From positions 1 through 42,567 of the IMG/VR virus record IMGVR_UViG_2534681936_000017: a stretch of DNA of 42,567 nt; one strand, 5' to 3'. The notes below the pieces were generated by a model, which had not been told where the DNA came from, searched no databases, and was given only the letters and a program-made list of their open reading frames with translations. A program made the translations under genes and the position numbers. This document shows, in pieces, positions 4,296 to 41,880 of this stretch (its first letter is position 1; every line of letters begins with the position of its first letter). This DNA is from a virus. Its lineage: Duplodnaviria > Heunggongvirae > Uroviricota > Caudoviricetes.

Positions 4296-4648
4296 TACGC
4301 CTCCGATGTAACAGTCGTTATTCCATAAAGAGTGTCGATTTCAGCGGAAAACATGACACGTCGGGTCGTGGTATCCACCGTCGTATTGAAAGAGAGGATT
4401 GATTTAACGCCCCGCGTTTCGAGGATGCGCTTACGGATCGCCAGGTTGTAGGTTTCAGGCTTCTGCTTACCGAGTACGGACTGGATCCACGGAGTCCCCT
4501 CGGTGGTGTCGAGAAACCATTGCCCATACCACAATTCGAATCGCGTTTTTACCGCCTGCGCCACGGCCTCCGGTGAGTTAATCAGCCAGGTGTCATCACC
4601 GCTGCCAAAGGTGTAATCGCCATCGGCGTCTTCACGTCTGTATCGCAT
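4295..4648 (-). CDS. Baseplate protein (gpW/gp25-like, putative)
   Basis: 117 aa, position between spike/V-like and J-like genes. Confidence 0.5.
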   Translation of the reverse strand: MRYRREDADGDYTFGSGDDTWLINSPEAVAQAVKTRFELWYGQWFLDTTEGTPWIQSVLGKQKPETYNLAIRKRILETRGVKSILSFNTTVDTTTRRVMFSAEIDTLYGITTVTSEA

Positions 4649-5400
4649 CAGTTTACCCCGTCGGTACTGCTTCCACCGCGCTGAACACCACCATGAGTGT
4701 GCGTATCATCGATTGGCTTGCCGTTAGCCTTCACGCTCCCCAAGAACTCAACAGCACCAGTGATTTTTGAAGCCACACCAGAAACCACAGACCCCACCAT
4801 GCCCCCCATCCAGGTTAACAGGCCATGAATGGTTACTTTCTCAGAAAAATCAGCCAGAGGGGCAACCACATCAAGACCACCCGGAGCGACAATTTTAATT
4901 TTCCTGGTATCAGGATTAAGCTCAAAATAGGTGCTGCCGTCGTCACTACGCAACTGTGTGGCACTGGTATTAATACCGCTCATCTTCCTCGCCTGCGACT
5001 GGGGACCGACAATACAAAATGCATCCGATAAATCATGCATTCTGTCATCGACAGGCTCCTGTATCCCGCCACTCTGCCACCAGAAATCAATACAACGATC
5101 GGCAAAAATCACCAGACATTCATCACCGGCTTTAACCGGGAACGTTAGCGTACAGCCTCCGCCGCGCGGAAATACCACTGGCACATCCACCAGCAGGGGT
5201 AATGTCGTCGACTGGTTGATTCCATTTGAGTCCGGCTCATAGCCTTTAATCGCTGGTTGAACAACTACCGTTACCGTGTCCTGATCAAATGACTGGACGA
5301 TACCGGGCATAGAAACACGCAGCACCGACATGACAGAACCAGCAAGTCTTACATCGGCCTGTTCTTTACTGCCGAGTTGAGAGGAAAGTGAAACTGGCAT
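4648..5400 (-). CDS. Baseplate assembly/spike protein (gpV-like)
   Basis: Track ORF starts with GTG at 5445; ATG at 5400 with GGAG 5 nt upstream is the likelier start (MPVSLSSQ...). Confidence 0.55.
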   Translation of the reverse strand: MPVSLSSQLGSKEQADVRLAGSVMSVLRVSMPGIVQSFDQDTVTVVVQPAIKGYEPDSNGINQSTTLPLLVDVPVVFPRGGGCTLTFPVKAGDECLVIFADRCIDFWWQSGGIQEPVDDRMHDLSDAFCIVGPQSQARKMSGINTSATQLRSDDGSTYFELNPDTRKIKIVAPGGLDVVAPLADFSEKVTIHGLLTWMGGMVGSVVSGVASKITGAVEFLGSVKANGKPIDDTHTHGGVQRGGSSTDGVN

Positions 5401-5418
5401 ATTTTCTCCAGACATAAA

Positions 5419-5441
5419 AAACCCGCTCGACGGCGGGTTAT
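5419..5441 (-). terminator. Rho-independent terminator after doc
   Basis: Minus strand cccgc-N6-gcggg hairpin followed by TTTTTT, directly after the doc stop and overlapping the start region of the V-like gene. Confidence 0.5.
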
Positions 5442-5471
5442 ACACATTTTACGTTTACCGTTGATACGCTA

Positions 5472-5879
5472 TCAGTATCCAGTAATCGTGTCTGCCAGCA
5501 GCTCATTCTTATAATCTGACAAGAGTTTTAGTGCCAGTGCAGTATTATCACAATCAGCTTCTCCAGTAGCAGCAAAGATAGTCAACTTCACCAACTCCAT
5601 GGAGGTGTTAAGTTCATAGCCATTCATTAGCAAGAAAATGCTGGTGGCCTGGAAAGCTGTTCGCTTGTTGGCATCGTTAAAAGCGTGAGACTTCGCTATT
5701 GCTACCATATACATAGCGGCAAATTTAAATAAATCCTCACAGCCTTCATATATGTGCAGATTATGCACCCTGTTCAGGGCACCTTCGAGCTTACCTATAT
5801 CAGGCTGCCCGCTGTTCGGCAGCGTACTTTTCTGAATCGCAATAACCTCATCAACCGAAAGAAACGTAATCTCAGCCAT
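5472..5879 (-). CDS. doc: Doc toxin (Fic/Doc family, death-on-curing)
   Basis: 135 aa; contains HAFNDANKRTAF matching the Doc/Fic motif Hx(F)x(D/N)ANKR; start overlaps phd stop (TAATG). Confidence 0.85.
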   Translation of the reverse strand: MAEITFLSVDEVIAIQKSTLPNSGQPDIGKLEGALNRVHNLHIYEGCEDLFKFAAMYMVAIAKSHAFNDANKRTAFQATSIFLLMNGYELNTSMELVKLTIFAATGEADCDNTALALKLLSDYKNELLADTITGY

Positions 5880-6292
5880 TATTTATCTTCCAGTTTTTTT
5901 ATAATTTCCGCATGCTTAGTCTGAGTATGTTGCAAAGCTTTAATAAATGACTCTGATACGCCCTGCAGGGCAAGTGCAGCATTGGCAGCCTTCATCATTG
6001 CCTGGCGCGCCTCATCAGACTGCAGAAGGACATCTAATTGCTTAGTAAACTTCATGACTCCCTCCGTTACCTGTGGGGATAAATTAGATGAAATTAACTG
6101 TGCAAGATGCGCATCTATCGTTTTGTTTTGTGGCTTAATTTCTTTTCCAGACACCACCTTATCAACGGTTTTTGCACTGATAACAGTATCAGGCTTCCCC
6201 CGTTGCGTTACCGTTACACTCTCACCTGAGCGTAACAATTCCAGCGTGGCAGATAAATCCGAACGCATTTGTGTATAAGTAATGGTTTTCAT
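5879..6292 (-). CDS. phd: Phd/YefM-family antitoxin
   Basis: N-terminus MKTITYTQMRSDLSATLELLRSGESVTVTQRGKPDTVISA resembles YefM/Phd; start at 6292 has a GAGAGGG RBS; unusually long (137 aa) for this family. Confidence 0.8.
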   Translation of the reverse strand: MKTITYTQMRSDLSATLELLRSGESVTVTQRGKPDTVISAKTVDKVVSGKEIKPQNKTIDAHLAQLISSNLSPQVTEGVMKFTKQLDVLLQSDEARQAMMKAANAALALQGVSESFIKALQHTQTKHAEIIKKLEDK

Positions 6293-6303
6293 AGCACCCT
6301 CTC

Positions 6304-6315
6304 TGTACATGTACA
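6304..6315. promoter_or_regulatory. Perfect 12-bp palindrome TGTACATGTACA, candidate Phd/Doc operator
   Basis: Lies 12 nt upstream of the phd start codon on the coding strand. Confidence 0.35.
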
Positions 6316-6372
6316 GATTAGCGCATATTCAAGATGAGAGAGCAATGATTAATACAGTTGTGTTGGTAAAGA

Positions 6373-6708
6373 TCACTTCACCTTCCGGCAATCATACGTC
6401 CAGAACTCCCGAGGCTCGTCCATATTTTTGCGGATAACTTCAACGTTGAGGATCGGCTTGCCATTTCTGGCCACAAAATCCATCCCTAACCAACGCCCAT
6501 TACCCGGAATCATCCATTGGATGTTCACATTGTCATAATCACCTTCCTGTTTGAGAAAGATGATTTTCTGTGTCTCCGGTTTCTGTCCATTAATCCTTGC
6601 AAGTCCGTCTTGCGCTTTCCAGTTGATCGTAAATGGTCCGCAACCTGTATCAGCAAAGGAAATGAAGGAGATACAGACAAGTAAAACTGTCAACAATAGT
6701 CTTTTCAT
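6373..6708 (-). CDS. Small secreted (signal-peptide) protein of unknown function
   Basis: 111 aa; N-terminus MKRLLLTVLLVCISFISFA is a signal peptide (not a canonical lipobox); start overlaps the stop of the upstream hub-like gene (ATGA). Confidence 0.55.
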   Translation of the reverse strand: MKRLLLTVLLVCISFISFADTGCGPFTINWKAQDGLARINGQKPETQKIIFLKQEGDYDNVNIQWMIPGNGRWLGMDFVARNGKPILNVEVIRKNMDEPREFWTYDCRKVK

Positions 6709-7736
6709 GTGTATTTCGCCGCATCAATCCCTTTCGAGTTAAGCAATTCTTTGCCACCTTTAGCCAGGCAAAGCAGGTCCATATACCACGCCTGCCCTCG
6801 GGTGTCGCCAGTATAATCAATGCTGCCCACAATGTAATCACCGTCAGTATTAATACTGGCAGGCTGTGACATGCCTGGCAGACCGTTAACGTAGAGATTA
6901 CCGTCGCTTTCAGACTCATCCAGTCGTGCTGGCGATTTCGCTACCAGGTCATTACTCAAAGAGGCACGGTATACAGATGCCTGATCCAGACGAATAAGCC
7001 CACCGAGCTTAATATTTGGGTTAATCAGACATCTGACATTTACGCCAGCTCCCATCGTCTGCTGTGGCATACCGATAAGCCCGGTGTTAGCGTTCAACAC
7101 CGTAGCAACACCAATATATTTATCTTCAGGAACAATATTTACCAGATTATTTTCATACCACCAGTTAGCTTTACACTGCCCTGCGATATGATTCATCAAC
7201 CTTGATGTGTTTTGATAAACAACGCGACCTCGGGGAAATACCGTTTCCGGCATGTCAGGAACTGCGCCGGATTCGATGCCATATGGTTCGAATGATTTCA
7301 TACCCAGACTGAAAAGATCGCTGTACTTCCAGCCAGCGGCCACTGTGGTTTTCACACTTGCGTTCAGGTGGCCTTCCCAGCTGTCAATACACTGCAACAT
7401 GATCCAACTGTCTGTGGCATTATCTTTACCAGTGACAGTAAAACGGATATCTCCATTGAATATCATACCAACGTTTTCATCAGGATAATTACCTGCTGCA
7501 TCCGGTTGCCCCTTGTATCCGGCAATAACCTGTATACGCGAAAACTCCTTCTGCATAATCCGGTTCTGAGTGGTAGGGGATAGGTTATAAACCTTAAAAT
7601 TCCCAACGAATCCATTAAATATGGTCGCAGGCATTTTCTGAATATTGAAAGTGACTTTAAGCTCAGAAATTTTTATCCCGTCGCCCTTATCATCAACAAG
7701 CAATAATTCAAAGTGACGCATCCAGTTTTTCGACAT
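6705..7736 (-). CDS. Baseplate hub / tail protein (gpD-like, putative)
   Basis: 343 aa, between tape-measure-proximal tail genes and the V-W-J cluster. Confidence 0.5.
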   Translation of the reverse strand: MSKNWMRHFELLLVDDKGDGIKISELKVTFNIQKMPATIFNGFVGNFKVYNLSPTTQNRIMQKEFSRIQVIAGYKGQPDAAGNYPDENVGMIFNGDIRFTVTGKDNATDSWIMLQCIDSWEGHLNASVKTTVAAGWKYSDLFSLGMKSFEPYGIESGAVPDMPETVFPRGRVVYQNTSRLMNHIAGQCKANWWYENNLVNIVPEDKYIGVATVLNANTGLIGMPQQTMGAGVNVRCLINPNIKLGGLIRLDQASVYRASLSNDLVAKSPARLDESESDGNLYVNGLPGMSQPASINTDGDYIVGSIDYTGDTRGQAWYMDLLCLAKGGKELLNSKGIDAAKYT

Positions 7737-26234: not shown

Positions 26235-26264
26235 AATATAGCCCCGGATAACAGATTGAGTCAA
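26235..26264 (-). promoter_or_regulatory. Late promoter pR'-like (-35 TTGACT, 18-bp spacer, -10 TATATT); expected Q-utilisation region
   Basis: Hexamers read on the minus strand; -35 overlaps the Q stop codon, as lambda pR' sits just after Q. Confidence 0.4.
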
Positions 26265-26728
26265 CAGACGGTTTTTAGATCCCCGGAAGAGAATGCATCA
26301 CGCATCGGCAGATAGAGCATAAACTCTGCCATTTTCAACCACGCATCTATGCGATTACGGCACGTGGCGTAACACCACTCAGGGTGTGAATCATTCAGCA
26401 ATTCAGCCATTTTGCGCTTAGTCATCCCCCTCCCTTCATATCGTTGCCGGAGGATACAAATCAATCCTGGGTGTTCTGCCAGCACTTCACTAATCACCCG
26501 ATCAATGCATAACGCCTCTGCATCAGTACAATGCACCAGCCAGCTTTTTTGCTTGCCGTTGATCATATCCCGCAAAAAAGCCTCAAGCTCAGGTTTGTCC
26601 AGACCTGCTTTTTTCATCCTCCGGAGCGCCTCGTTAATTGCCGTTTTTGTCAGCTTTTTAGAGGTCAGCAACTGGTTGAACATATTCCCCGTCTTACCGC
26701 CACCAATATACGACCAGCGCCCCCACAT
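26261..26728 (-). CDS. Late-gene antiterminator Q (putative)
   Basis: Position upstream of pR'/tR' and lysis genes; start set at ATG 26728 (RBS AGGGAAA; MWGRWSY...) because the longer track ORF overlaps the upstream gene with Arg-rich junk. Confidence 0.55.
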   Translation of the reverse strand: MWGRWSYIGGGKTGNMFNQLLTSKKLTKTAINEALRRMKKAGLDKPELEAFLRDMINGKQKSWLVHCTDAEALCIDRVISEVLAEHPGLICILRQRYEGRGMTKRKMAELLNDSHPEWCYATCRNRIDAWLKMAEFMLYLPMRDAFSSGDLKTVC

Positions 26729-26811
26729 ACGTAGTTTTCCCTGAATCCAGACACTTTCCAGCGTAGTGAGACGAAGGTGTTCTCCGCTTTTTCCTGTATT
26801 CGTTGGGTAAA

Positions 26812-27102
26812 TCACAAATATCCCTCCTTTCTCCAGATTTCTTGTGTGCGAAAAACACCTTCTGCATGCATCAGGCGTAATTCTTCTTTGGTGTAATCGC
26901 TGGTTTTTACCCGCCCGTCGATTAGATCGTGGCATGAGCTACAGGCAATCGCCGCCTGCATATCGTGTGGTTTTGTCGCTGTTCCGCACGTTCCCGCCAG
27001 TCGGTAATGCGCCAGCACAGACGTTTCCGGATCGTGATTGCAGTAGCCAGGAATTCTGACGGTGCACATCTGCCCCCGCGCCGCTTTACGTAAATCCACC
27101 AT
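26812..27102 (-). CDS. Small Cys-rich zinc-binding-type Nin-region protein (YbcO-like, putative)
   Basis: 96 aa with several Cys/His (CNH, C..C, CSSCH); position upstream of Q. Confidence 0.45.
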   Translation of the reverse strand: MVDLRKAARGQMCTVRIPGYCNHDPETSVLAHYRLAGTCGTATKPHDMQAAIACSSCHDLIDGRVKTSDYTKEELRLMHAEGVFRTQEIWRKEGYL

Positions 27103-27701
27103 TACGCAAACTCCAGCAGCTGCGCGGCCACATTTTCGACTTCCTCCGGAGAGGAGAATTTACGGAACAGGATCCAGTTCCACAGCACATTCAGTACGGC
27201 TTTATAAACCTGCTGAAACTCGGTTTCGTCCATATTCGCAAAAGCAATGGATTTCGCCCGACGCCCGTGGCTACCGTCCGGATAAATATGCTCGGTGTAA
27301 AATCCGGCCTGAATGGTTACCCATTCGCGGAAAGCGTCAAATGACTTGAGCAATGCCGTATCCCGGGTTCTGCGTGTCGCAACGGCATTCAGATATTGCT
27401 CTGCGGCTTCGCTCAGGGCTGGAGTGTGTTCCCGACCAACTGATTCGCACAGATACTCAACGAAGCCTGATACCAGTTCTCGTTCTCGAGGCGTGATCGC
27501 CCCACCGTTCGGAGTCCAGTAATCGAATCCCAGTTGCAGGAGTTTGAAAAAACGCTTGTGGAACGCGTAGTTACGCACTCGCTTAAAGTCCGCGTGTATC
27601 CACTCACCTATTTTGATTTGATGCAAAAAATCGCAACTCTCCGGCGTCGCCGGGAGAAGTAATCCGGAAGAGGTTTGTTTGACCAGTTGTATGTGCGCCA
27701 T
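27102..27701 (-). CDS. Nin-region hypothetical protein
   Basis: 199 aa, translationally coupled (ATGA) to the downstream gene. Confidence 0.45.
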   Translation of the reverse strand: MAHIQLVKQTSSGLLLPATPESCDFLHQIKIGEWIHADFKRVRNYAFHKRFFKLLQLGFDYWTPNGGAITPRERELVSGFVEYLCESVGREHTPALSEAAEQYLNAVATRRTRDTALLKSFDAFREWVTIQAGFYTEHIYPDGSHGRRAKSIAFANMDETEFQQVYKAVLNVLWNWILFRKFSSPEEVENVAAQLLEFA

Positions 27702-27772
27702 CGTAGTTCTCCGCTGGCGCAGTAGAATGGGTGTTCAGCCCGTTATGTAGTATACCAGAATTAATGCCAATA

Positions 27773-28024
27773 CTAACAGGATGCTCTGACTCGCAATTCA
27801 TCCAGCAGTTTATCATTTCCCATAATGTCACTTACCCTCATCGGTAAAAAAATTGCCTTTCGACCATTACGATACATCATTGATTTTGGGGTTTCAGGAA
27901 AGTAATCCATTTCGACTATAACTGACAGGTCATCACGACGTATGACTGCATATTTACTACTAAATAGTTTCTTTATTTTTTCCACGATGCCTCCAGGTTT
28001 ATAAGTACAAACGGTTATATCCAC
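27773..28024 (-). CDS. Rem-like small protein (Qin prophage rem-like, putative)
   Basis: 83 aa; sits beside hok as rem does beside hokD in Qin; AT-rich upstream region. Confidence 0.45.
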   Translation of the reverse strand: MDITVCTYKPGGIVEKIKKLFSSKYAVIRRDDLSVIVEMDYFPETPKSMMYRNGRKAIFLPMRVSDIMGNDKLLDELRVRASC

Positions 28025-28168
28025 ATAGAGACAAAAATATTAATCTGAAAAATATTTATTTCACGTCGTATATTTGATTATTTAATGTGCAGGTACAATG
28101 ACTTTTATTTTTTGTTGTGTATATAATCAAATATATGGTTATTTTTCACCCTGCGCATTCAGCACGCA

Positions 28169-28193
28169 ACAAAAAACCCGCCGAAACGGGTTA
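28169..28193 (-). terminator. Rho-independent terminator after hok
   Basis: Minus strand aacccg-N6-cgggtt hairpin followed by TTTTTTG, about 70 nt after the hok stop. Confidence 0.4.
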
Positions 28194-28262
28194 AATGCGG
28201 GTGCGTTGAGGATGCCTGACACATCAGAGGTGGCGGGGGATTTCGCCCCCGCCGGGTCACTC

Positions 28263-28418
28263 TTACTTCTCAGATTCGTAGTCTACGAAGACAGCGACCT
28301 CCGTCTGGCCGGTTCGGATTCGTACCTCGCAGAGGTCTTTCCTCGTTACCAGTGCCGTCACAATGACGGTTAAACAGATGACGATCAGGGCGATTAACAT
28401 CGCCTTGTGCTGCTTCAT
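28263..28418 (-). CDS. hok: Hok/Gef-family type I toxin
   Basis: MKQHKAMLIALIVICLTVIVTALVTRKDLCEVRIRTGQTEVAVF... is the Hok/HokD signature. Track ORF 28263-28475 extends upstream in the same frame. Confidence 0.85.
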   Translation of the reverse strand: MKQHKAMLIALIVICLTVIVTALVTRKDLCEVRIRTGQTEVAVFVDYESEK

Positions 28419-28439
28419 AGACTGCTCCTCCTTGCCTTT

Positions 28440-28540
28440 CGGCACGTAAGAGGCTAACCTATGTGTGTAGAGCATAGATATGGCCTCAGATTAATGTTAA
28501 GCGTCTTGCAGGACGCGTAATGTTAACTGGGGCTTTTCTC
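28440..28540 (+). ncRNA. sok: Sok-like antisense RNA (approximate placement only)
   Basis: Inferred from hok/sok locus organisation: antisense to the hok leader around the translation initiation region. Ends not determined. Confidence 0.3.
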
Positions 28541-28708
28541 TGTCTGCCTTACAGTGGCATGCCCGAGGCAGACAGCCTCAAGCACCCGCAGCAATTTTAC
28601 TTAACTCCCCTTTTCCCGCAAACCGTTTTTATCCCCAGCGGCAAATCGAATACACCACCAGCGCCACCGCCATTGCGATTCCTGCCGTTGTGAATGCTTC
28701 AGGCCAGG

Positions 28709-29098
28709 TCATCGCAAAACATCCTCCGCGCTTATCAGTTCGTTCCGCTTCAGGTAGTCCATCGCCTTCTCCGGTAATTTGCAGTCTGGATTAGCTTTTT
28801 TCAGTTGACTGACCAGTCGTTTAACCCACATTGTTAATTCGCCAACCTGGTTGCCAGGTGCTGGTGGAGCTGCATATAACGGCACCCACTTTGGCGCTTT
28901 ATCCCCGACCGAACGCTGATACCAGTCACCCGGTTTGTATTCATAAAACTCACCAACCGGCTCTGCCTCCAGCGATGCCAGTGCAATGTTGAATAACTCA
29001 CCCTCTACCCGTGCCAACCCTGAATTGGGGTGGCATTTCGCAATCGCTATTTTTAATTTGGCCTCTTCGATTAATTGCTCTTTGGTTAATTCAGTCAT
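28709..29098 (-). CDS. Hypothetical protein (Nin-region)
   Basis: 129 aa ORF with coherent composition. Confidence 0.5.
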   Translation of the reverse strand: MTELTKEQLIEEAKLKIAIAKCHPNSGLARVEGELFNIALASLEAEPVGEFYEYKPGDWYQRSVGDKAPKWVPLYAAPPAPGNQVGELTMWVKRLVSQLKKANPDCKLPEKAMDYLKRNELISAEDVLR

Positions 29099-29193
29099 TT
29101 TTCATTACCGCCCTTTCGGGCGGCCTCCTGATGATTTGAGGGTGCAGAAATCCCTCCGGTTAAGGATTAAATTTTTAACAGTGCTAAATTTAA

Positions 29194-29550
29194 TTATTCA
29201 GTTCTGGATTTTGTCGCCCTGCGTATCCGCGCTTTCGCGTTACGCTCAATCTGAATTAACTTTTCTATATTTTTCCGCCTTTCCTGTTCTTCCTGGCGCA
29301 ATAGCTTTACATCATCTGCCAGTCTGGTTTCTCTTTTCGCCACAGAGAGCATCCAGTCAAATGGCTCCACAACTGCACCGCAGATTTTACAGCGGACCTG
29401 GCGCTCTTTTTCGTCAACCCGGACAGAAGCGTGATGGCAATATGGTCTTTCCGATGGCTCATAAAGAAAATTAACCTGATTACGAGGGTCATCCTCTTTT
29501 ATCGGAAATAAAACGATATTGCTTAACTCATCCTCTGGTTTTATTTCCAT
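29194..29550 (-). CDS. Hypothetical protein with CxxC motif
   Basis: Start at ATG 29550 with strong RBS AAGGAGAGGAGC; contains YCHH and CKIC. Confidence 0.5.
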   Translation of the reverse strand: MEIKPEDELSNIVLFPIKEDDPRNQVNFLYEPSERPYCHHASVRVDEKERQVRCKICGAVVEPFDWMLSVAKRETRLADDVKLLRQEEQERRKNIEKLIQIERNAKARIRRATKSRTE

Positions 29551-29607
29551 GCTCCTCTCCTTTGATGCGAATGCCAGCGGCAATTGAAGCCTGATAGCTA
29601 ATTTCAC

Positions 29608-30030
29608 TCACAGTACCGCCTCCTGAAAATTACCCTGATAGAAAGCCAGTACACGCTGCATAGCTTCGCTCTTCCGGCACTCGCGACAGATTATATTCAG
29701 ACGCCTGTCGTAGCGGCGTATCTCTCCATCTGGTAATGACCAGATAAGGTCCGGATCAACCACAGATGGTTTCTTCAGCTTTGCCCTGGATAGTTTTTTG
29801 CGGGCGTTTTGCCAGTCCTTACGGGCCTGTTCAGACGGAAATAACCCGTAACCAGAGTTGTATACATCGCCACTGGCAACAAGCTCTCTGGCGAGAACGC
29901 TCATCAGATATCTTGTCGCACCTGTCTTGGCTTCCAGTTGCCGTAACGTCTCGCGCCCACTCCGGCGTACTAGCTCAACAACCTGCCCTTTAATTTTTTC
30001 CCGCTCTTCTTGTGTAAATACTTTTGCCAT
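29608..30030 (-). CDS. Hypothetical protein
   Basis: About 140 aa, translationally coupled to the upstream gene. Confidence 0.45.
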
Positions 30031-30766
30031 AAGCGCCCCCGGCAATCACTTTTCCGACACAATACGACTGGAGGAATCGACAATCTGTCGGACAATATCC
30101 CGGTGCTTGTTCAGCTCCCGCAGCGCGGCGCAGCTCGCGGTTTGCCATATGCAGCGATGGTAAAATCAGGTCATCCGCTTGCATTTCAGTAAACGATGGC
30201 AACGACTGCACAATGTCCGCCACAGTTTCTGTTTTAATATCTTCCTGTGTTGCCGCTTCCTGTACTGGTAACGCAACACCTGCGGGCTGAGGAAAGGCCT
30301 TACCATCAGTTTCCGTTACCGATGCAGCTTTCGGCTCTGCTGGTAAATTATCGCCCGGTATGCAGTAACGAAATTTACCGTTCTGATTTACGCGAATCAG
30401 ACGCCCCTTGCTGATTGCCATTGCCAGCGTTGAAGCTACTTTGCGTGATGTGGTACCGAACAACGCAGCCAGCTCATCCGCCGTTTGTGGTCCGCGTTGT
30501 TCAATCGTCGCGGTTAAATCGCACTCTGAGATTTTCGCTACTGTTGCCGTGGTGGTTTCTTCCGGCTGTTCTTCCGGCGCTGGCTGTTCCTGCTGAACGT
30601 TGTTATCAGCCACACGCCAGGTGTACGCGCTTTTATCAACGAAACCAGCTTTTTTCAGTTCCCATAGTTCGTTCAGCACTTCTTCACGACTGATATCAAG
30701 TCGCGCAGCAAGTTCTATGGATGTGGCTTTTCCCATTGCTTTCAGTGCGTCAAAAACAGTCTCCAT
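29990..30766 (-). CDS. Hypothetical protein with N-terminal winged-helix-like domain and acidic linker
   Basis: Start ATG 30766 (RBS GGGAG); N-terminus [30 protein letters not shown] is HTH-like; directly after the DnaC-like gene (YdaW position). Confidence 0.5.
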
Positions 30767-30788
30767 TAAATTTTTCTCCCGGTAAAAA

Positions 30789-31535
30789 TTACTTCGCAAT
30801 TCCTGGCTGGACGACATTCGGACGCCAGCTCTCCCAGTTAAAATTCACCCAGCGTCCGCCGTTCATGGTCATGCGATCCATAACCCGCTCGCCGAGCAAT
30901 GTTTTCATGGCCTCATAGTTCAGGTTTGTCAGCATTCCCACGCTGCGCATCGACGCTGTCCGGCGATCAACAATCTGGTGCAGTACCACCTGCTCGTTTT
31001 TCGTCTCGCGCTGAATGCCAATTTCATCAAGAACCAGCAGATCCACTTCGCACAGTTCCCGCAAAAATTTTTCGCCTGACTGCCCGTCGTCATAGCTGGC
31101 GTGCAGGGCGCTCATAACATCAGCCACGGTAACCACAATCACTGTCTGACCGTCTTTCAGCAGGCGATTCCCGATAGCTGCCGCTAAGTGGTTCTTCCCG
31201 GTACCAGGTTTTCCGCTGAACGCAAAATTTGTACACCCGGACATCAGTTCATCAGCGATGGATTTCGCCTGGCTCAACGCGTATCGCTGACCGTCGTTCT
31301 GCACCTGGTAATTCGCAAACGAGCATTTGCGGTGCAACGGCTGGATGCCAGAGCGATTCAGGATTTTTTCCACCCGCAACTGACGATTCAGGCGGTTGAT
31401 CTCCTCGCTACGTTTCTGGCCTTCAGCAAGTTGCCACTCGCGCCACTCCGCAACCGTTCTGAATGGGGCGGTTACATGTGGTGGGGTCAGTCTGCGAATT
31501 CGCTCCAGAACGCCTCCTGTCGCAATATTTTTCAT
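30789..31535 (-). CDS. DnaC-like helicase loader (AAA+ ATPase)
   Basis: 248 aa; Walker [16 protein letters not shown] and Walker B LLVLDEIG. Confidence 0.8.
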
Positions 31536-31541
31536 GGTCTG

Positions 31542-32324
31542 TTACCCCCTGAAGCCTGGCGGGATCGCACTGTCCGGCAACGAGACGGTGTTAACCTGTC
31601 GGAGCAACGTCTCAGGCCGAACACCTTTCGGCGCGAACAGGCCCTGGTATTCATTGGCGATGCTGTGTCGAATCACCTGCTCAGGTGTAAAACCCTGCTG
31701 ACGGAATTTTTCCAGTTCCCGTATCGCCCCGTTAGCGCCCTGCTCCGTTCGAATCGGTTTTCGCAATGCCTGTCTGAACCGGACCCACTCATGCCAGAGT
31801 GTTTCCGGCAACCAATCGGGCAGCTCAATAGCCTCCGGCTCGAACTTTTTAGACGCTCGTTTTTGCCGAGGGGGATTTAGGGGGAGATCAGTATTTATAT
31901 CTTCCTCTTCCTCTGGTAACGCTTTTTGATCCGTTTGTGTAACGCTGACAGCGTTACCTTTTCGTTTCAGTTCGCGTATTTTTGTTACTCGCTCGTTTGT
32001 AACCGCCCGTTTTTTAGAGCTTTTTCCGTTATGACGTTCAAAGTTAGGTAGAGAAAGCCCACCGTCATTTTCGACCAGCCATCCAACCTGAATTAACGCA
32101 TCAGCAAAACCAGCCATAAAAGTAATGCGATCTATTGCACTTTTTGTAACGCCGCGAGCGTTACAATCTGCGTTACCGTCTATCATTTGTTGATCCGCCC
32201 ATGCCCAGAAGCGAATAACCTTCCCTAATGCGGCATCTGGATCAATATTCAGAATCTCAGCAAGCCTGAATATTTCCGGCTTATCCGGCGTAATAACCTC
32301 GAGCTTTATCCAGTTTGAAGCCAT
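31542..32324 (-). CDS. Replication initiator / replisome organiser (O-like, putative)
   Basis: 260 aa immediately upstream of the DnaC-like gene; basic C-terminal half. Confidence 0.6.
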   Translation of the reverse strand: MASNWIKLEVITPDKPEIFRLAEILNIDPDAALGKVIRFWAWADQQMIDGNADCNARGVTKSAIDRITFMAGFADALIQVGWLVENDGGLSLPNFERHNGKSSKKRAVTNERVTKIRELKRKGNAVSVTQTDQKALPEEEEDINTDLPLNPPRQKRASKKFEPEAIELPDWLPETLWHEWVRFRQALRKPIRTEQGANGAIRELEKFRQQGFTPEQVIRHSIANEYQGLFAPKGVRPETLLRQVNTVSLPDSAIPPGFRG

Positions 32325-32401
32325 TTGTTTTCACCTTGTAACGCTCACAGCGTTACATTTAACTGATACCGAACAAAACAATCCGGCACGATTAATTTCA
32401 A

Positions 32402-32824
32402 TCAATGCACTACGACAGAATCGCCGGGCGACCCACCACCGCTGAAATGTGCTTTCCGGTAAACGGCCTGGACTGCATCATCATGCGCATCAATTGCCGT
32501 ACTCAACGCTTCCTGCGCCGCCAGTAATGCACGGCGTTCCAGGGTATCGAAGATGCAGAGTCGGTGACGCAGCTCGCGCGGAAGAATTGCCAGAACCGCA
32601 GGGATCAGTTTCTGAATTTTTTCCCTTTGCGCTTTCGTTTCACCTTTCAACCAACGGTGATAGATATTCTGCTGATTGTTCCAGTCCTTGCCTGGTACCA
32701 GGGGCAATTCGCCGCCCCCCTGGCGCAGATATTCTTCAGTAATTGCGTTAGCGACCCACGCCTGCCCTTTTTCGGCTGCCAGGGCTAACAACACTGATTC
32801 GATGTGCTCATGCCTGATTTTCAT
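32402..32824 (-). CDS. YdaT-like protein (Rac-type cII-position gene)
   Basis: 140 aa directly after the Cro-like gene, overlapping its stop. Confidence 0.5.
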   Translation of the reverse strand: MKIRHEHIESVLLALAAEKGQAWVANAITEEYLRQGGGELPLVPGKDWNNQQNIYHRWLKGETKAQREKIQKLIPAVLAILPRELRHRLCIFDTLERRALLAAQEALSTAIDAHDDAVQAVYRKAHFSGGGSPGDSVVVH

Positions 32825-33063
32825 GAATCAACCGCTCCTATGCTGTTTTCGCTATGCTTACCGTCTGGGGGGAATACATCGTCAAGTCCACAATGAGCGC
32901 CAAGCCGATTAAGGGTAGAAACAATTTTTCTGCACTCCTCTAGTCCTGGGGTACGAAAATTTGCTTCGTAATTTGCCAGTCGGCTTTGTATCCACCCTAA
33001 CTGAACAGCGAGTTGTCTTTGAGACAACCCAAGCTGTTTTCGATATGTTGAAATTTTGTTCAT
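32821..33063 (-). CDS. Cro-like HTH regulator (YdaS-like)
   Basis: 80 aa; HTH QLGLSQRQLAVQLGWIQSRLANYE; divergent from the repressor gene. Confidence 0.7.
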   Translation of the reverse strand: MNKISTYRKQLGLSQRQLAVQLGWIQSRLANYEANFRTPGLEECRKIVSTLNRLGAHCGLDDVFPPDGKHSENSIGAVDS

Positions 33064-33087
33064 TGAAAACCTCCGATGACAATTTTA

Positions 33088-33148
33088 AACACACCTTGTG
33101 TTATATGGTCAAGCTGTTTTGTGTTTTATGTAAATCACGATTCGTGAT
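33088..33148. promoter_or_regulatory. Operator/promoter region: palindromes AACACACCTTGTGTT (33088-33102) and ATCACGATTCGTGAT (33134-33148)
   Basis: Two dyad-symmetric sites in the 96-bp divergent intergenic region between the Cro-like and CI-like genes. Confidence 0.45.
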
Positions 33149-33159
33149 ACAAGGATGCA

Positions 33160-33579
33160 ATGGAAAAAGAAAACGAAAAAATTGCCGCTAGTAGGCTCAA
33201 TGACAAAATTGCAATGCGTCTTAAAGAGCGCAGGCAGAAGCTTGGTTTATCTCAAGGAAAACTTGCTGAAATCTGCGGATGGACGCAATCGCGTATAGGT
33301 AACTATGAGGCGGGCAGCAGAAATGTTGGAGTGCATGACGCTGTCGTATTGGGAAAGGCACTTGGCATATCTCCCCCTGAGCTCCTCTTTGGAGAACAGG
33401 AATCTTCTGAATTGTGGTTAAATGAATCCCAACGAAAACTTCTTGAGTTGTTTAACCAGCTACCGGGCTCAGAACAACAACGAATGATTGAGCTATTTGA
33501 AGTCCGGCTAAAAGAAATCGATGAGTATGTAGAAAAATATTTGAGAGGCAGGCTTAAAGATAATCCCCCACCGGAGTAA
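33160..33579 (+). CDS. CI-like prophage repressor (XRE-family HTH, RacR-like)
   Basis: 139 aa; HTH LGLSQGKLAEICGWTQSRIGNYEAG; divergent from cro-like gene; own terminator downstream. Confidence 0.75.
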   Translation: MEKENEKIAASRLNDKIAMRLKERRQKLGLSQGKLAEICGWTQSRIGNYEAGSRNVGVHDAVVLGKALGISPPELLFGEQESSELWLNESQRKLLELFNQLPGSEQQRMIELFEVRLKEIDEYVEKYLRGRLKDNPPPE

Positions 33580-33608
33580 TGATCTTGCTATCACAGTAAT
33601 ATGCCAAT

Positions 33609-33634
33609 CAGCCCGCTATCAGCGGGCTTTTTTG
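33609..33634 (+). terminator. Rho-independent terminator after the repressor gene
   Basis: gcccgct-atc-agcgggc hairpin followed by TTTTTTG. Confidence 0.6.
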
Positions 33635-33884
33635 TACCATCATCATATGACACTCACCACAAAACACATTTCGTGTTGACATAAGAAAACGCATTGTGTT
33701 TAATAAGCATATCCAAACAACGCCCCACCAGAGAACGGCAGGACAATACCTCGAGTTATCCAGCCACTGAACAGGGCTAAGTAGCCAGCCTGAGGCATAC
33801 GAACATGACGGCAGTTGTTGATTGATACAAAGCGCAGTAGATAAAACGTTCCGCCACCCGGCGTTAAGGGGAAATGAGGTCAAC

Positions 33885-34040
33885 ATGGATACTATCGATC
33901 TTGGCAACAACGAATCTCTGGTATGTGGCGTGTTTCCCAATCAGGACGGCACATTCACCGCCATGACGTATACCAAAAGCAAAACGTTTAAAACCGAAGC
34001 TGGCGCACGTCGTTGGTTGGGAAGACATTCAGGTGAGTAA
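33885..34040 (+). CDS. Small protein (YdaF-like, 51 aa)
   Basis: ATG 33885 with RBS GAGG; MDTIDLGNNESLVCGVFPNQDG... Confidence 0.4.
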   Translation: MDTIDLGNNESLVCGVFPNQDGTFTAMTYTKSKTFKTEAGARRWLGRHSGE

Positions 34041-34041
34041 A

Positions 34042-34245
34042 ATGAACGAGACAGAATTAAAACACGTTATCGCTCTACTCCTGGAAGATGCAAAACGCCT
34101 CCAGCAACTGGAGCCAAATGCAGGCACTGGGGCACGCATCTGGCTGGCTAAAGAAGCACTGGAATCTGGCGATTATGATAGCGAAGAAGCCTTCTACAAA
34201 GCAGAAGGCCGTGCAGGATATTCACCGGGTCTTGGCGGGGTATAA
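34042..34245 (+). CDS. Small acidic hypothetical protein (67 aa)
   Basis: ATG 34042 with RBS AGGTGA; 3' end overlaps the convergent minus-strand gene by 24 bp. Confidence 0.4.
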   Translation: MNETELKHVIALLLEDAKRLQQLEPNAGTGARIWLAKEALESGDYDSEEAFYKAEGRAGYSPGLGGV

Positions 34246-34512
34246 ATACCATGCGCATTGACTGAATTCGCAAACAAAAACAGACGCGCGATACCTGGAT
34301 AGTCGGTCTGCATAGTCAGATATCTGGCTGCGAATTTGATAAATATCACCGCCCTTTTCGGAAACATAAGTTCCGTCCGGGAGTTGATTATACGAACCAT
34401 CTCCATGGGGGATCGTTCTCCTGAATCCTAGTGAGAGCATATATTTATGAAGCCCTTCGTAATCCTCTGGCTCAGCATTATATAGTTCTACTCTGGCGAG
34501 ATACGTTGGCAT
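34222..34512 (-). CDS. VapD/Cas2-like small protein (putative endoribonuclease fold), antisense moron in the sieB position
   Basis: 96 aa from ATG 34512 (RBS AAGGAA, 6-nt spacing). Pattern TYLARVEL...YEGLHKYMLSLGF...HGDGSY resembles the VapD beta1-alpha1-beta2 N-terminus. Weak, motif-level inference. Confidence 0.35.
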   Translation of the reverse strand: MPTYLARVELYNAEPEDYEGLHKYMLSLGFRRTIPHGDGSYNQLPDGTYVSEKGGDIYQIRSQISDYADRLSRYRASVFVCEFSQCAWYLYPAKTR

Positions 34513-34750
34513 ATTCATTTCCTTACTGGTTGTGTGAGAACTTCAGTAAAGATACCACCAAAGCCCGGAGGTGGTGAAATAAAACCGGGCACAACACGAA
34601 GGCGCATTTCCGGTATTCATAAAGAGTCGGTCTTGTCTGTTAAATTTAAATGGTGGGAGTGCGCCTCCGGTTGTAAATAACGACATTGCTGTGTGTAGTC
34701 TTTAGCGGCATCAGTTCTACTCCGTGGCTGCCCTGCCGCCCCTTTTTAAA

Positions 34751-34892
34751 GTGAATTTTGTGATGCGGTGAATGCGGCTAAGCGCACGCGGCACAGTTAA
34801 AAGCATCAGTGTTATGGGTGGATTATCCGGCGTTAATTGTTAACTGGTTAACGTCACCTGGAGGCACCAGGCACCGCATCGACAAAATTCAT
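34751..34892. repeat. Inverted repeat pair (about 20 bp arms, 19/20 with one indel) flanking a 100-bp spacer upstream of kilR
   Basis: gtgaattttgtgatgcggtg (34751-34770) versus reverse complement of caccgcatcgacaaaattcat (34872-34892); right arm ends 20 nt before the kilR RBS. Confidence 0.5.
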
Positions 34893-34912
34893 TTGTAAAA
34901 ATGGAGATAATT

Positions 34913-35134
34913 ATGATTGCTCATCACTTCGGAACTGATGAAATACCACGTCAGTGTGTGACCCCTGGCGATTATGTTCTTCATGAAGGTCGGACATATA
35001 TCGCCTCGGCAAACAATATTAAAAAGCGAAAACTTTATATTCGTAGCCTGACTACAAAAACATGCATTTCTGACTGCATGATTAAAGTCTTCCTCGGTCG
35101 TGATGGTTTACCTGTAAAGGCGGAGTCATGGTAA
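34913..35134 (+). CDS. kilR: KilR-like host-killing protein (cell division inhibitor)
   Basis: 73 aa from ATG 34913 (RBS GGAGA); [26 protein letters not shown]... matches Rac KilR as recalled. Confidence 0.65.
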
Positions 35135-35304
35135 TGACTAAGAAAATAAAATGTGCTTATCACCTTTGCAATAAAGAAATTGAAGAAAGCAAAATCATTA
35201 CAAGACCACTTCATTTCATGCGTGGAGTTATACCAACGACGGAAATGAAAAAATATTGTAGTGAAATCTGTGCCGAAAAAGACCAGATGGCACACGAACT
35301 TTAA
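35134..35304 (+). CDS. YdaE-like small zinc-ribbon protein
   Basis: 56 aa, not in the ORF track (below size cut-off); [18 protein letters not shown]...CSEICAEKDQMAHEL; ATG overlaps kilR stop. Confidence 0.5.
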   Translation: MTKKIKCAYHLCNKEIEESKIITRPLHFMRGVIPTTEMKKYCSEICAEKDQMAHEL

Positions 35305-35378
35305 TTAACTGACTATCCGAAACTGAATTTATGCCAGCAATGGCAGGGATTCGCTCAACCTTAATTAAGGAGAAAAAC

Positions 35379-35654
35379 ATGATTACCAGTTATGAAGCCA
35401 CTGTTGTTACTACTGATGACATTGTTCACGAAGTCAGCCTGGAAGGAAAGCGTATTGGCTACGTGATTAAGACAGAAAATAAAGAAACCCCATTCACTGT
35501 GGTTGATATCGACGGTCCATCAGGCAACGTTAAAACACTTAACGATGGTGTTAAAAAAATGTGTCTGGTGCACATAGGAAAGAATCTGCCCGCAGAAAAA
35601 AAAGCCGAATTTCTGGCAACTCTGATTGCAATGAAATTAAAAGGTGAAATCTGA
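35379..35654 (+). CDS. RacC-like protein
   Basis: 91 aa from ATG 35379 (RBS AAGGAGA); immediately upstream of recE-like gene. Confidence 0.5.
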   Translation: MITSYEATVVTTDDIVHEVSLEGKRIGYVIKTENKETPFTVVDIDGPSGNVKTLNDGVKKMCLVHIGKNLPAEKKAEFLATLIAMKLKGEI

Positions 35655-35753
35655 AAAAAAGAAAGCCTGCACACTGTGCAGGCCTGAGTGAAGAACCTGG
35701 GACATTTATTCATCACTCGCAGTAATTTTAATCTGAGTTGAGGTTAAAAAACA

Positions 35754-38700
35754 ATGAGCACCGATAAACAAGTTTACCCACTGTATTACGAAGCAAAAAA
35801 TGACAAAGTAAGAAAACGTCTCGGTATTAAAGGCGGTTTCTACTGGGCTGAAGCGAAAAAATTATCCATTGCCATCTCCCGTGGTGCTGTTGCGATTGAC
35901 GATGCTGGCTACGATGAAGATGACTTTAAAAAACCTGTTCGCGTCAATTTGCCCGTTGTTGATGACCTTCCACCAGAAGGCGTATTTGATACGGAATTCT
36001 GCAACCGTTACGAAAAAGGCGGGGAAGATGGCATCACAATGGTATTTATCGCGCCCTCATCCTCTGCGCAGGACAAACCAGCCAGCACTGACAATACCAA
36101 TGTTAATGGCGAAGACATGACTGAGATTGAGGAGAATATGCTACTCCCGATTTCTGACCAAGAGCTGCCCATTCGCTGGCTTGCTCAACACGGCAGCGAA
36201 AAACCGGTAACGCACGTTTCACGCGACGAACTCCAGACATTACATATTGCACGGGCTGAAGAACTACCAGCTGTTACTGCCCTGGCTGTTTCCCACAAAA
36301 CCAGCCTGCTCGACCCGCTGGAGATTCGCGATCTTCACAGACTGGTTCGTGATACTGACAAAGTTTTCCCTAATCCAGGCAATTCAAGTCTGGGGCTGAT
36401 GACTGCTTTTTTCGAAGCATACCTGGACGCAGACTACACCGATCGCGGTCTGCTGACAAAAGAGTGGATGAAAGGAAATCGTGTTTCACGCATCACTCGC
36501 ACGGCTTCCGGTGCTAATGCTGGCGGCGGGAACCTCACCGATCGCGGCGAAGGTTTCGTCCACGATCTGACGTCACTGGCACGCGATGTAGCCACTGGCG
36601 TACTGGCCCGTTCAATGGACGTGGACATTTATAACCTTCATCCGGCACACGCTAAACGTGTCGAGGAAATTATCGCTGAAAATAAACCGCCCTTTTCTGT
36701 TTTCCGCGACAAATTCATCGCCATGCCTGGCGGGCTGGATTATTCCCGCGCCATCGTGGTTGCGTCCGTAAAAGAAGCACCAATTGGGATCGAGGTTATC
36801 CCCGCACACGTCACTGAATATCTGAACAAAGTACTGACTGAAACCGATCATGCCAACCCTGATCCGGAAATCGTAGATATTGCCTGCGGTCGCTCCTCTG
36901 CCCCGATGCCGCAGCGGGTAACAGAAGAAGAAAAACAGGATGATGAAGAAAAACCGCAACCATCTTGCGCAATGGCAGATGAACAGGCAACGGCTGAAAC
37001 AGTGGAACCGGATGCAACTGAACATCATCAGGACACGCAGCCGCTGGATGCTCAGTCACAGGTAAATTCTGTTGATGCGAAATATCAGAAACTGCGGGCA
37101 GAACTCCATGAAGCCCGGAAAACCATTCCGCCCAAAAATCCTGTCGATGCCGACAAATTGCTGGCTGCCTCTCGCGGAGAATTTGTTGAGGGGATTAGCG
37201 ACCCGAATGATCCGAAATGGGTGAAGGGGATTGAAACCCGCGATTCAGTGAACCAGAACCAACAAGAATCGGAACAGAACGACCAGAAAGCGGAACAAAA
37301 CAGCCCAAATGCGTTACAAAACGAGCCAGAAACGAAACAGCCTGAACCAGTGGCGCAACAGGAAGTGGAAAAAGTTTGCAATGCCTGCGGTCAGTCTGGC
37401 GGGGATAACTGCCCTGACTGTGGTGCGGTGATGGGCGACGCAACATATCAGGAAACATTCGATGACGAGAATCAGGTTGAAGTTCGGGAAAATGAGCCGG
37501 AGAAAATGGAAGGCGCTGAACATCCGCACAATGAGAATGCTGACAGCGATCCGCATCGCAATTGCAGTGATGAAACTGGCGAAGCGTCAGCTCCTGTAGC
37601 AACTGAAATCATGTGGCCGTCATATTTCGAGCCAGGCCGCTATGAAAACCTCCCGAACGAGGTTTATCACTCCGCCAACGGAATAAGCAGCACGATGCTG
37701 AAGGATGCCCGTATCAGCCTGATGTATTACCACGGGCGGCACATTGCCGGAACTATTCCGAACGAGGAAAGTGATGCACTGCTGCGTGGGCGGATCATTC
37801 ACAGCTATGTTCTGGAAACGGATAAATTCGCTGATGAATATGCCATTCCGGTACCGGTTCCTGAATATGTGGTTACTACTTCTAACGAACTGATCGCCAT
37901 CATTAAAAAACACAATGCCAGTCTGCCAGCACTGATGACACCAGAGCAGATGAAAGAGTGGATCGAAAGCTACAACAGCACTCTTATACAGCCACTGTCT
38001 GTAAGTGCTGGGGCCGAAGAAACAGGCATCCTTTACGGTTCGCTTCCGGTGGAATTTCGGCGTATTCCTGAGGGGGAAAAACACACAGCATCAGCAATGA
38101 AAGCCTGTATTAAAGAATACAACGCAAGCCTCCCTCCTCTGTTGAAAACCAGTGGAGCACGGGAGCAGCTTCTGGATCAAATTGAAACTGTAGATCCAGA
38201 ACTGGCAAAAAAAGAACGTGCTAAATCTTTGCCTTACAACATCAGTGGCACAAAAGAGCAATTAACCGAAATCGCACGGAAAATTCGCCCGGAACTGGTG
38301 ACACTGGAGGACTGGCAAAAACGCCAGCAAGAAGAAAACGCCGGGAAAACGTTTATCAGTCCGGATATGTATGAACAGGCAAAAAATATTCACGCGGCAC
38401 TGCAAAACAATACCGATGCAGCAAGGCTACTCAACCACCCGGATCGCAAATCTGAAATCAGCTATTTCGGGTTTGATGAAGAAACCGGGCTGGAAATCAG
38501 GGTCCGTCCTGATATCGAAATCCGGCTGCCATACGAAAGCATTTGCGCTGACGTGAAGTCAGTCAGCCTCGGTTATGTGCGGCAGGAACGACTTAAAGAT
38601 CGCCTGCACCGTGAAATTATTGAGCGTGATTATCACCTCAGCGCCGCAATGTATTGCGATGTGGCAAACCTGGACAAATTTTTCTGGATCTTCGTCAACA

Positions 38701-38900
38701 AAGATGCTGGCTATCACTGGGTGGCAGTCGTGGAAGCCTCGCAGGAACTCCTTGAACTTGGTCGACAGGAATATCGCCGGACGCTACACCAGATAAACGA
38801 AGCGCTGGAGACAAACAACTGGCCAGCACCGATTACCGAAAGTTATACCGACGAATTAAACGACTTTGATCTTCGTCGTCTTGAAGCACTGAGCATCTGA
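35754..38900 (+). CDS. recE: RecE-family exonuclease (exonuclease VIII-like), mosaic with a divergent C-terminal nuclease domain
   Basis: 1048 aa; central region ([16 protein letters not shown]...[12 protein letters not shown]...[18 protein letters not shown]) matches K-12 RecE as recalled; the C-terminal about 400 aa differ from K-12 RecE. Confidence 0.8.
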
Positions 38901-38911
38901 GGAAGGACACA

Positions 38912-39964: not shown

Positions 39965-40027
39965 TATTTACTATGGCGGTGTAGCCTCGCCGCCATAACA
40001 AAACTTTATTTTATGAGAGAAAAGACA

Positions 40028-40403: not shown

Positions 40404-40503
40404 GCTGCATTATATACAAATTAGAACTTCATAGCTGATTATTAAAAATCAACCACACCCGCCAGTATTCTGTATATTTACTGGCGGTCATATCGTAAGA
40501 GGT

Positions 40504-41833: not shown

Positions 41834-41880
41834 TTTTAACGTAAATGGATTGTTAAATGTATTTTGGTTGTGATATAACC

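Follow-up and report, generated by a model that had tools for sequence, protein, structure and literature searches.

The Doc toxins of phage P1 and of Salmonella Typhimurium are kinases of elongation factor Tu (EF-Tu) that act on Thr382 and arrest translation (PMC9207808, PMC10440598), and in Salmonella the kinase is neutralised by residues 52-73 at the C-terminus of a short-type Phd antitoxin, a peptide that ends in K73 (PMC9207808). In the P1 module (PDB 3K33, 3KH2, 3HRY) the antitoxin gene precedes the toxin gene, the stop and start codons overlap, and the carrier is a temperate phage. We find the same three properties in a phd-doc pair of an E. coli prophage, which we analysed in a stretch of 42,567 nucleotides (positions 1 to 42,567 of IMG/VR record IMGVR_UViG_2534681936_000017; hereafter the window, to which positions refer unless another locus is named). 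As a molecular description, we consider it probable (roughly 0.78) that the pair is an intact, autoregulated type II toxin-antitoxin cassette, and that it is exchangeable cargo, carried like a classic moron at a set place of the late operon, the slot between the genes for the baseplate hub and the baseplate spike. As such the module is already known: it is a standard Phd-Doc module, RefSeq already names both genes Phd and Doc, and correctly, and its behaviour is that of a textbook moron. Some of its features are variant, namely a long antitoxin and an operator built of abutting hexamers.

The identification of the toxin is carried by family matches and by the active site. Doc-type active sites follow the consensus HxFx(D/N)(A/G)NKR. 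Doc of the window scores above the cut-offs of Pfam Fic/DOC (PF02661; E 1.5e-10, 42.2 bits against a cut-off of 24) and of NCBIfam TIGR01550, DOC_P1 (81.2 bits against 38.65, which passes the threshold of this curated family), and it matches phrog_577, ‘Doc-like toxin’ (E 2.4e-32). Its residues 7-119 align with the structure of P1 Doc (3K33; E 1.8e-19), with HAFNDANKR standing column for column opposite HIFNDANKR of P1, and the catalytic motif is identical in 5 diverged orthologues. The stop codon of phd and the start codon of doc share one nucleotide (TAATG, 5881-5877), and at all homologous loci the antitoxin and toxin genes are likewise adjacent, co-oriented and translationally coupled. The first-pass annotation of this DNA, which was made from the letters alone, had proposed a Phd/YefM antitoxin of 137 residues overlapping by 1 nt a Doc toxin with the motif HAFNDANKR; the open reading frames (ORFs), Pfam and TIGR01550 bear this out, and the alignment to P1 Doc confirms that the catalytic motif is intact. 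By homology, then, the two genes are a Phd-Doc type II toxin-antitoxin pair, and an identity of about 40% together with the conserved motif suggests that Doc of the window is an EF-Tu kinase as well.

The antitoxin differs more from the described systems. P1 Phd has 73 residues and Phd of the window has 137, with ~65 extra residues that separate the DNA-binding domain from the C-terminal helix; the first-pass annotation had called the protein longer than typical, and it does exceed the compact Phd/YefM size of ~73-95 residues. The compact layout, in which the DNA-binding domain is followed directly by the toxin-binding tail, gives way here to one with a variable, helical insert at ~48-112. The N-terminal DNA-binding domain is homologous to that of P1 Phd: Pfam PF02604 (PhdYeFM) matches residues 1-38 only (31.1 bits against a cut-off of 29.8), TIGR01552 falls slightly under its cut-off (19.0 against 20.8), a profile of the Phd family has P1 Phd as its best match in the PDB (E 7e-5), and hhalign aligns the family with P1 Phd over residues 1-47 (93%). 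Thus, when both proteins were aligned to P1 Phd and Doc, as had been proposed as a check, Doc aligned over the range given above, but the match of Phd was limited to this N-terminal part. The antitoxins of YefM-YoeB and Axe-Txe belong to the same DNA-binding fold family (PMC1802561), although the partner of YefM is YoeB, whereas the partner here is Doc.

When homologues of the long Phd are clustered at 90% identity, 70 clusters result; almost all come from Enterobacterales, and most have lengths of 128-157 residues. In the alignment of this family the DNA-binding domain (residues 1-40) is highly conserved, residues ~41-70 form a variable, gap-rich loop that is followed by a moderately conserved region (P73, E77-G78, Q85, S92), and the C-terminal end is almost invariant (SF.KAL.HTQ.KHA.IIKKLEDK). 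AlphaFold2 predicts a strand-helix-helix-strand-strand arrangement for residues 1-40 (pLDDT 92-93), disorder at 45-59, three low-confidence helices at 57-109 (the middle region has a pLDDT of 43-63) and a terminal helix at 114-136 (pLDDT 77-85). Salmonella Phd holds and inhibits Doc through F56, I59, M60, H63, L67 and L70, and the peptide to which they belong ends ...ADK (PMC9207808). The long Phd ends H127-AEI-I131-KK-L134-E-D136-K137, with F116-IK-A119-L120 further upstream, and H63, L67, L70 and D72-K73 of Salmonella Phd line up with the invariant H127, I131, L134 and D136-K137; this is a likeness of pattern only (H-x3-[IL]-x2-L-x-D-K), not significant as an alignment (256/2000 shuffles), and the spacing from F-x-x-[AI]-[LM] to the His is 4 residues longer here than in Salmonella Phd. 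In line with the modular ‘Phd-C’ concept for the Doc-neutralising helix (PMC10440598), we reason that the terminal helix of the long Phd may neutralise Doc. Inside phd there is also a Shine-Dalgarno (SD)-like GGAGGGAG (6053-6067, minus strand), 4 nt ahead of an in-frame ATG (M78). We considered an internal start or a past gene fusion at this point and rejected both: M78 varies within the family, and the purine run is accounted for by the codons of the conserved E77-G78, so that the SD-like run is probably incidental.

The cassette is preceded by a palindrome that is probably its operator. A perfect 12-bp palindrome, TGTACATGTACA, lies at 6304-6315 and is the core of a perfect 16-bp palindrome, TCTGTACATGTACAGA, which ends 9 nt ahead of the phd start codon. 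The first-pass annotation had seen that a perfect palindrome is present upstream of phd, but placed it 12 nt from the ATG (6292-6290), where the 12-bp core is in fact 11 nt away, and did not extend it to 16 bp. Palindromes of at least 12 bp are no more frequent in the window than expected by chance (9 against 10.8 expected), and those of at least 16 bp number 1 against 0.8 expected, although the exact 12-mer occurs once. Since palindromicity is thus at chance level, the meaning of this site comes from its position, from its known operator core and from its conservation. TGTACA is the experimentally defined core of YefM operators, and the operators of P1 Phd share its GTAC centre (PMC1802561). 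The 16-mer is invariant in 7/7 aligned upstream regions, which include those of E. coli ECONIH5 (82% nucleotide identity over the cassette), Klebsiella, Pantoea and a Serratia phage with the cassette in a different genomic context, and it is also present in Serratia sp. Ag1. The 12-bp core is kept even upstream of a chromosomal cassette of Morganella, where Phd is only 33% identical, and across all of these genera this core is constant, in front of every homologous cassette examined, while the flanking sequence diverges. This is good phylogenetic-footprint evidence that the palindrome is a cis-regulatory site belonging to the cassette, a putative operator, and the earlier suggestion that the pair has an operator-like palindrome of its own is upheld by this invariance and by the TGTACA core. 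Two copies of TGTACA adjoining the -10 are found at yefM-yoeB also, but there they are 12 bp apart, centre to centre (PMC1802561), and the P1 operator consists of two 8-bp palindromes 13 bp apart, whereas the window has one 16-bp palindrome of abutting hexamers. We found no further GTAC in 6293-6372, so the region lacks a two-site operator with the 12-13 bp spacing. Other perfect palindromes nearby are GCCCTGCAGGGC and AGATGCGCATCT inside phd (5960-5971 and 6105-6116) and a 14-mer in the hub gene (6845-6858).

A weak promoter can be proposed from the sequence directly upstream, such that the operator starts at the last base of the proposed -10 and lies between the extended -10 and the phd ribosome-binding site. 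In the alignment of upstream regions the TTG... of its -35, the TG and TA.T are conserved, and it is on this reading of the sequence and this conservation that the assignment of a weak phd-doc promoter is based.

To define the segment that is exchanged, the window was compared by blastn with six related E. coli prophages. Homology breaks on the left at ~5439-5442 in 5/6 relatives (at 5424 in the sixth, L007), and on the right at 6373, the stop codon of a 111-residue ORF, in 4/6 (at 6369 in L007 and at 6757 in L006). These breaks place the cargo segment at 5440-6372, so that the comparison with related prophages lacking the cassette, which had been suggested earlier, does yield boundaries. We then searched 5,426 complete E. 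coli genomes for the hub-to-spike interval. It was matched in 311, and the slot holds phd-doc at ≥96% identity in only 3/311. In close relatives, in which the flanks are ~92-99% identical, the commonest alternative cargo is a DUF4282 gene; others are a YafO toxin with an upstream 190-residue gene, a 151-residue gene on the opposite strand, a tetratricopeptide repeat (TPR) protein with a 136-residue protein, two Arc repressors with a P22-type antirepressor, and insertion sequence (IS) elements. Unrelated genes also fill the interval of deposited relatives (Klebsiella phage ST405-OXA48phi1.2, SEN34 and Escherichia phage vB_EcoM-611R5). Judged from these comparisons, the site is a shared, fixed cargo slot and not a one-off insertion.

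The slot thereby resembles the morons of HK97 and HK022 and the hotspots of P2 and P4 (PMC9122126): cargo is present or absent between conserved late genes, is co-oriented with the late operon and is followed by a terminator, and in close relatives unrelated cargo replaces the cassette. The difference is that this slot is in another phage lineage, with a SEN34/Brunovirus-like tail module. With respect to the features by which morons are recognised, there is extra DNA between genes that is filled differently in related phages; a terminator is present but is slot-wide, and the promoter of the cassette is a predicted one. PHROGs classes Doc-like toxins under morons.

Some of the alternative cargos are worth noting in themselves. 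In the slot of E. coli GZ2408P (L002 3144-4134), the YafO-family toxin lies behind a 190-residue protein that has no Pfam or PADLOC match and may be an antitoxin partner other than YafN. In E. coli ES3 (L007 1314-2865; also H47, H60 and H61), the two Arc-family repressors and the P22AR-C antirepressor form an immI-like module inside the tail operon. The cargo of ST405-OXA48phi1.2 (L010 4903-5571) is a 222-residue protein on the opposite strand with a zinc ribbon and a tRNA_anti-like (OB-fold) domain, annotated as ‘hydrogenase maturation factor’.

The cassette is rare. At least 5 of the 5,426 complete E. coli genomes carry phd-doc, and neither megablast of 5300-6800 nor tblastn of Phd had a match among 50,697 deposited phage genomes; the cassette was found only in prophages and chromosomes. 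A scan of species-representative genomes yielded only 3 loci, and with so few the contexts cannot be tallied quantitatively. In ECONIH5, Klebsiella, Pantoea and Serratia sp. Ag1 the tail modules have diverged and the pair again fills the slot between hub and spike, whereas in the other Serratia phage the pair lies between a Q-like antiterminator and HNH/terminase genes, another typical moron position. Identity to Doc of the window is 94% in ECONIH5, 86% in Klebsiella, 84% in Pantoea, 75% in Serratia and 68% in Morganella, while identity to Phd is 83%, 73%, about 51%, about 51-53% and 33%, respectively. Across these loci Doc has changed far less than Phd (identities of 68-94% versus 33-83%; L005, L016, L018, L013, L021), and Phd has diverged mainly in its middle insert. 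All 5 translated copies (window, ECONIH5, Klebsiella, Pantoea and Serratia) share the stretch SHAFNDANKRTAFQA without change. In Morganella psychrotolerans (L021 3920-4821) the long-phd/doc pair is chromosomal and in a non-phage context, with a GntR/aminotransferase-type regulator on one side and a LysE-type exporter on the other; TGTACATGTACA stands before phd, and another TGTACA is found ~45 bp upstream.

By analogy with P1 and Salmonella Phd-Doc, and with good backing from homology, we suggest the following P1-like mechanism. In the lysogen, the weak promoter directly upstream would drive phd-doc. Phd dimers would use their N-terminal domain to bind the TGTACA-TGTACA palindrome, within which transcription is predicted to start, and would repress the operon, probably together with Doc as a corepressor, while the invariant C-terminal helix of Phd (F116...H127..I131..L134.DK) would cover the active site of Doc. 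The conserved terminator would end the phd-doc transcript ahead of the spike gene, and would thus shield the genes for spike and baseplate when a cargo is transcribed in the lysogen. In the lytic phase, late transcription under Q antitermination would pass through both cassette and terminator. If synthesis of Phd stopped, by loss of the element or by shut-off of host transcription, proteolysis of Phd would free Doc, which would phosphorylate EF-Tu and halt translation.

Several observations weigh against this account. The C-terminal 90 residues of Phd have no significant similarity to P1 or Salmonella Phd: the hhalign alignment with P1 Phd ends at residue 47, a Pfam scan of residues 47-137 with E up to 10 gave only noise, and Smith-Waterman scores of residues 48-137 against the P1/Salmonella Doc-binding peptides were equalled by 256 and 499 of 2000 shuffles. 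The TGTACA hexamers abut, 6 bp apart from centre to centre, compared to 12-13 bp in the operators of YefM and P1 Phd, and because of this difference the stoichiometry of binding may differ. A consensus promoter scan of 6293-6372 called no promoter, and position 2 of the proposed -10, GCTAAT, is not the A that is usual there. Our literature search found no data on toxicity, neutralisation, DNA binding or expression for the long-Phd subfamily. Finally, the benefit of post-segregational killing is less obvious for an integrated prophage, with the cassette in its tail operon, than for the plasmid prophage P1.

In the picture drawn by the first-pass annotation, the baseplate operon would be continuous but for a self-contained insertion, which came with an operator and a terminator of its own. 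A hairpin with a T-run does follow doc (5439-5416; stem AACCCGC/GCGGGTT, loop CGTCGA; -12.6 kcal/mol, z -1.8), and a possible hairpin with T-run also follows doc of the Serratia phage in which the pair is not in a tail module (L013). However, the element is not specific to the cassette, because, whatever the cargo, the spike gene has the same hairpin and T-run in front of it, at an equal distance from its SD sequence and ATG, and both recur in the Klebsiella, Pantoea and Serratia Ag1 relatives. In the Arc/antirepressor variant (L007) the stem has changed in a compensatory manner, CCCAGC/GCTGGG compared to CCCGCC/GGCGGG, and pairing is kept. Moreover, blastn homology to prophages without phd-doc runs through the hairpin to 5439-5442 in 5/6 relatives, and no empty, uninterrupted hub-spike junction was present among the loci inspected. 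Most simply, the terminator can be read as a fixed element that bounds the slot on its downstream side, and we regard a cassette with a terminator of its own as unlikely. A part of the hairpin may nevertheless travel with cargo: the loop and inner stem read CCGCCG[TC/CT]CGAGCGG in the phd-doc carriers (E. coli, Serratia Ag1) but CCGCCACCCGGCGG in E. coli prophages with other cargo, and because of this difference recombination joints may lie inside the hairpin. The terminator had also been said to overlap the start region of the next gene, which is true only if an upstream ATG at 5415 is used; for the RefSeq start at 5400 (MPVS..., with the SD sequence GGAGA at 5409-5405) it lies just upstream of the gene.

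In favour of the alternative that the pair is inactive or in decay, a mere passenger of the prophage, one might point to its rarity in E. coli and to the frameshifted genes of the same prophage (ydaT and DUF1627). We consider this very improbable. Both ORFs are intact and translationally coupled, and the catalytic motif and the operator do not vary among the diverged copies. Compared to ECONIH5, dS is 0.87 for phd and 1.5 for doc, and dN/dS is 0.12 and 0.02, respectively (the range for phd is 0.12-0.14); dN/dS values of 0.02-0.14 at near-saturated synonymous divergence show that both genes are under purifying selection. Low dN/dS, conserved sequence and recurrence across genera and contexts together indicate that the cassette is old, mobile and mostly phage-borne, and not a decaying remnant. 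As for the role for which this mobile cassette is selected, our best guess, at about even odds, is addiction, by which the cassette stabilises itself and its carrier, with an anti-phage effect as a possible by-product. It has a smaller chance, and we think it doubtful, that the cassette owes its maintenance mainly to abortive-infection defence of the lysogen population, where an invader would shut off host transcription, Phd would decay and Doc would block translation before the phage cycle was complete, and that the hub-spike slot is a defence hotspot like those of P2 and P4. Conserved flanks around highly variable cargo, including a YafO toxin, are the architecture of phage defence hotspots (PMC9122126); Doc weakly matches two PADLOC candidate-defence models, PDC-M59B (E 4.8e-6) and PDC-S23; and Fic-domain proteins such as Sofic are reported to act in defence (PMC12249575). 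Nonetheless, seven other proteins of slot cargos matched no PADLOC model, and we found no report of Phd-Doc itself protecting against phage. The slot is not obviously specific for defence, because its cargos include the small DUF4282 membrane protein, which is the commonest, and the immI-like Arc/antirepressor regulatory module.

In the literature that we searched, to which access was partial, we found neither a paper on the long-Phd subfamily nor a description of the hub-spike slot. A stronger proposal would be that long-Phd/Doc is a distinct regulatory variant with a functional ~65-residue insert and that the slot is an undescribed, terminator-bounded cargo hotspot; taken together, these claims are in our estimate improbable. 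The insert might act as a sensor or adaptor, for instance for a phage or protease trigger, or it might be a spacer that lets Doc bridge two Phd dimers on the abutting TGTACA hexamers, roughly on opposite faces of the DNA. If the proposal were true, the hub-spike slot of SEN34-like tails would be a place that shuttles toxins and regulators between enterobacterial prophages. The value of the present analysis is mostly in tidying up. It adds a recurrent slot, closed by a conserved terminator, in the SEN34-like tail modules of E. coli, Klebsiella, Pantoea and Serratia prophages, which can be mined for new lysogenic-conversion or defence genes, such as the 190-residue partner of YafO and several genes without a family match. 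The long-Phd subfamily, which is restricted to Enterobacterales, and its invariant composite TGTACA-TGTACA operator offer a natural test of linker length and operator spacing in Phd-Doc corepression.

Table 1. Positions of the cassette, its regulatory elements and neighbouring genes in the window
Feature	Position	Strand	Basis and remarks
Baseplate spike gene, gpV-like	4648..5400	-	Pfam spike N-terminal domain, E 8.5e-44, and GpV Apex motif; conserved backbone downstream of slot
Intrinsic terminator	5414..5439	-	Terminator scan and fold; 7-bp GC-rich stem, 6-nt loop, T-run; spike-proximal slot boundary
Exchangeable cargo segment (phd-doc cassette and regulatory region)	5440..6372	-	Breaks in blastn homology to six related E. 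coli prophages, in agreement with alignments A1 and A2
doc, Doc (Fic-fold) toxin, 135 aa	5472..5879	-	Motif H65-AFNDANKR-73
phd, long Phd/YefM-family antitoxin, 137 aa, begins MKTITYTQMRSDLS...	5879..6292	-	Pfam PF02604, residues 1-38
Putative operator, 16-bp perfect palindrome TCTGTACATGTACAGA of two abutting TGTACA hexamers	6302..6317	.	Conservation and identity with YefM operator core
Putative weak promoter	6317..6345	-	Read from sequence; -35 TTGCTC (6345-6340), 17-nt spacer, extended -10 TGcGCTAAT (6325-6317)
111-aa signal-peptide gene, upstream flank of slot	6373..6708	-	ORF list; phrog_3443 (function unknown)
Baseplate hub gene	6705..7736	-	Pfam E217_GP41 baseplate hub; conserved backbone upstream of slot
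Q-like late antiterminator	26261..26815	-	Pfam DUF1133 and Phage_antitermQ; phrog_753 ‘anti-termination protein Q-like’, E 2e-81

The window comes from E. coli O55:H7 and represents a lambdoid prophage whose contractile tail is SEN34-like. Its sequence matches a 42-kb prophage of strain DEC5A (E. coli O55:H7) with 100% identity, is also present in FDAARGOS_946, and is flanked in its integrated form by the chromosomal genes yebY and pphA. The contractile tail module is of the type of Salmonella phage SEN34 (Brunovirus), the early region is Rac-like, and homologues of the hub gene occur in SEN34 and in Klebsiella and Escherichia temperate myoviruses. All genes around phd-doc in this part of the window are on the minus strand, and the gene map agrees with the first-pass annotation that the pair lies inside the tail/baseplate late operon, away from the ends of the prophage. 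The location it gave between the hub-like and gpV-like genes is correct too, but it left out the 111-residue gene between hub and phd. The start of this gene overlaps the stop codon of the hub gene, and its product, which had no Pfam or NCBIfam match, has an N-terminal signal peptide, MKRLLLTVLLVCISFISFA, followed by DTG..., and would be a secreted protein whose gene lies within the baseplate block. The gene is kept beside the hub gene in most relatives and is replaced in some (L006, L018). The prophage holds further genes of toxic or toxin-antitoxin type, namely ralR, kilR, the frameshifted ydaT and a hok/gef gene (window ~27700-42000; L009 2345-14305), and at the start of the window the invertase gene pinE adjoins an invertible tail-fibre segment.

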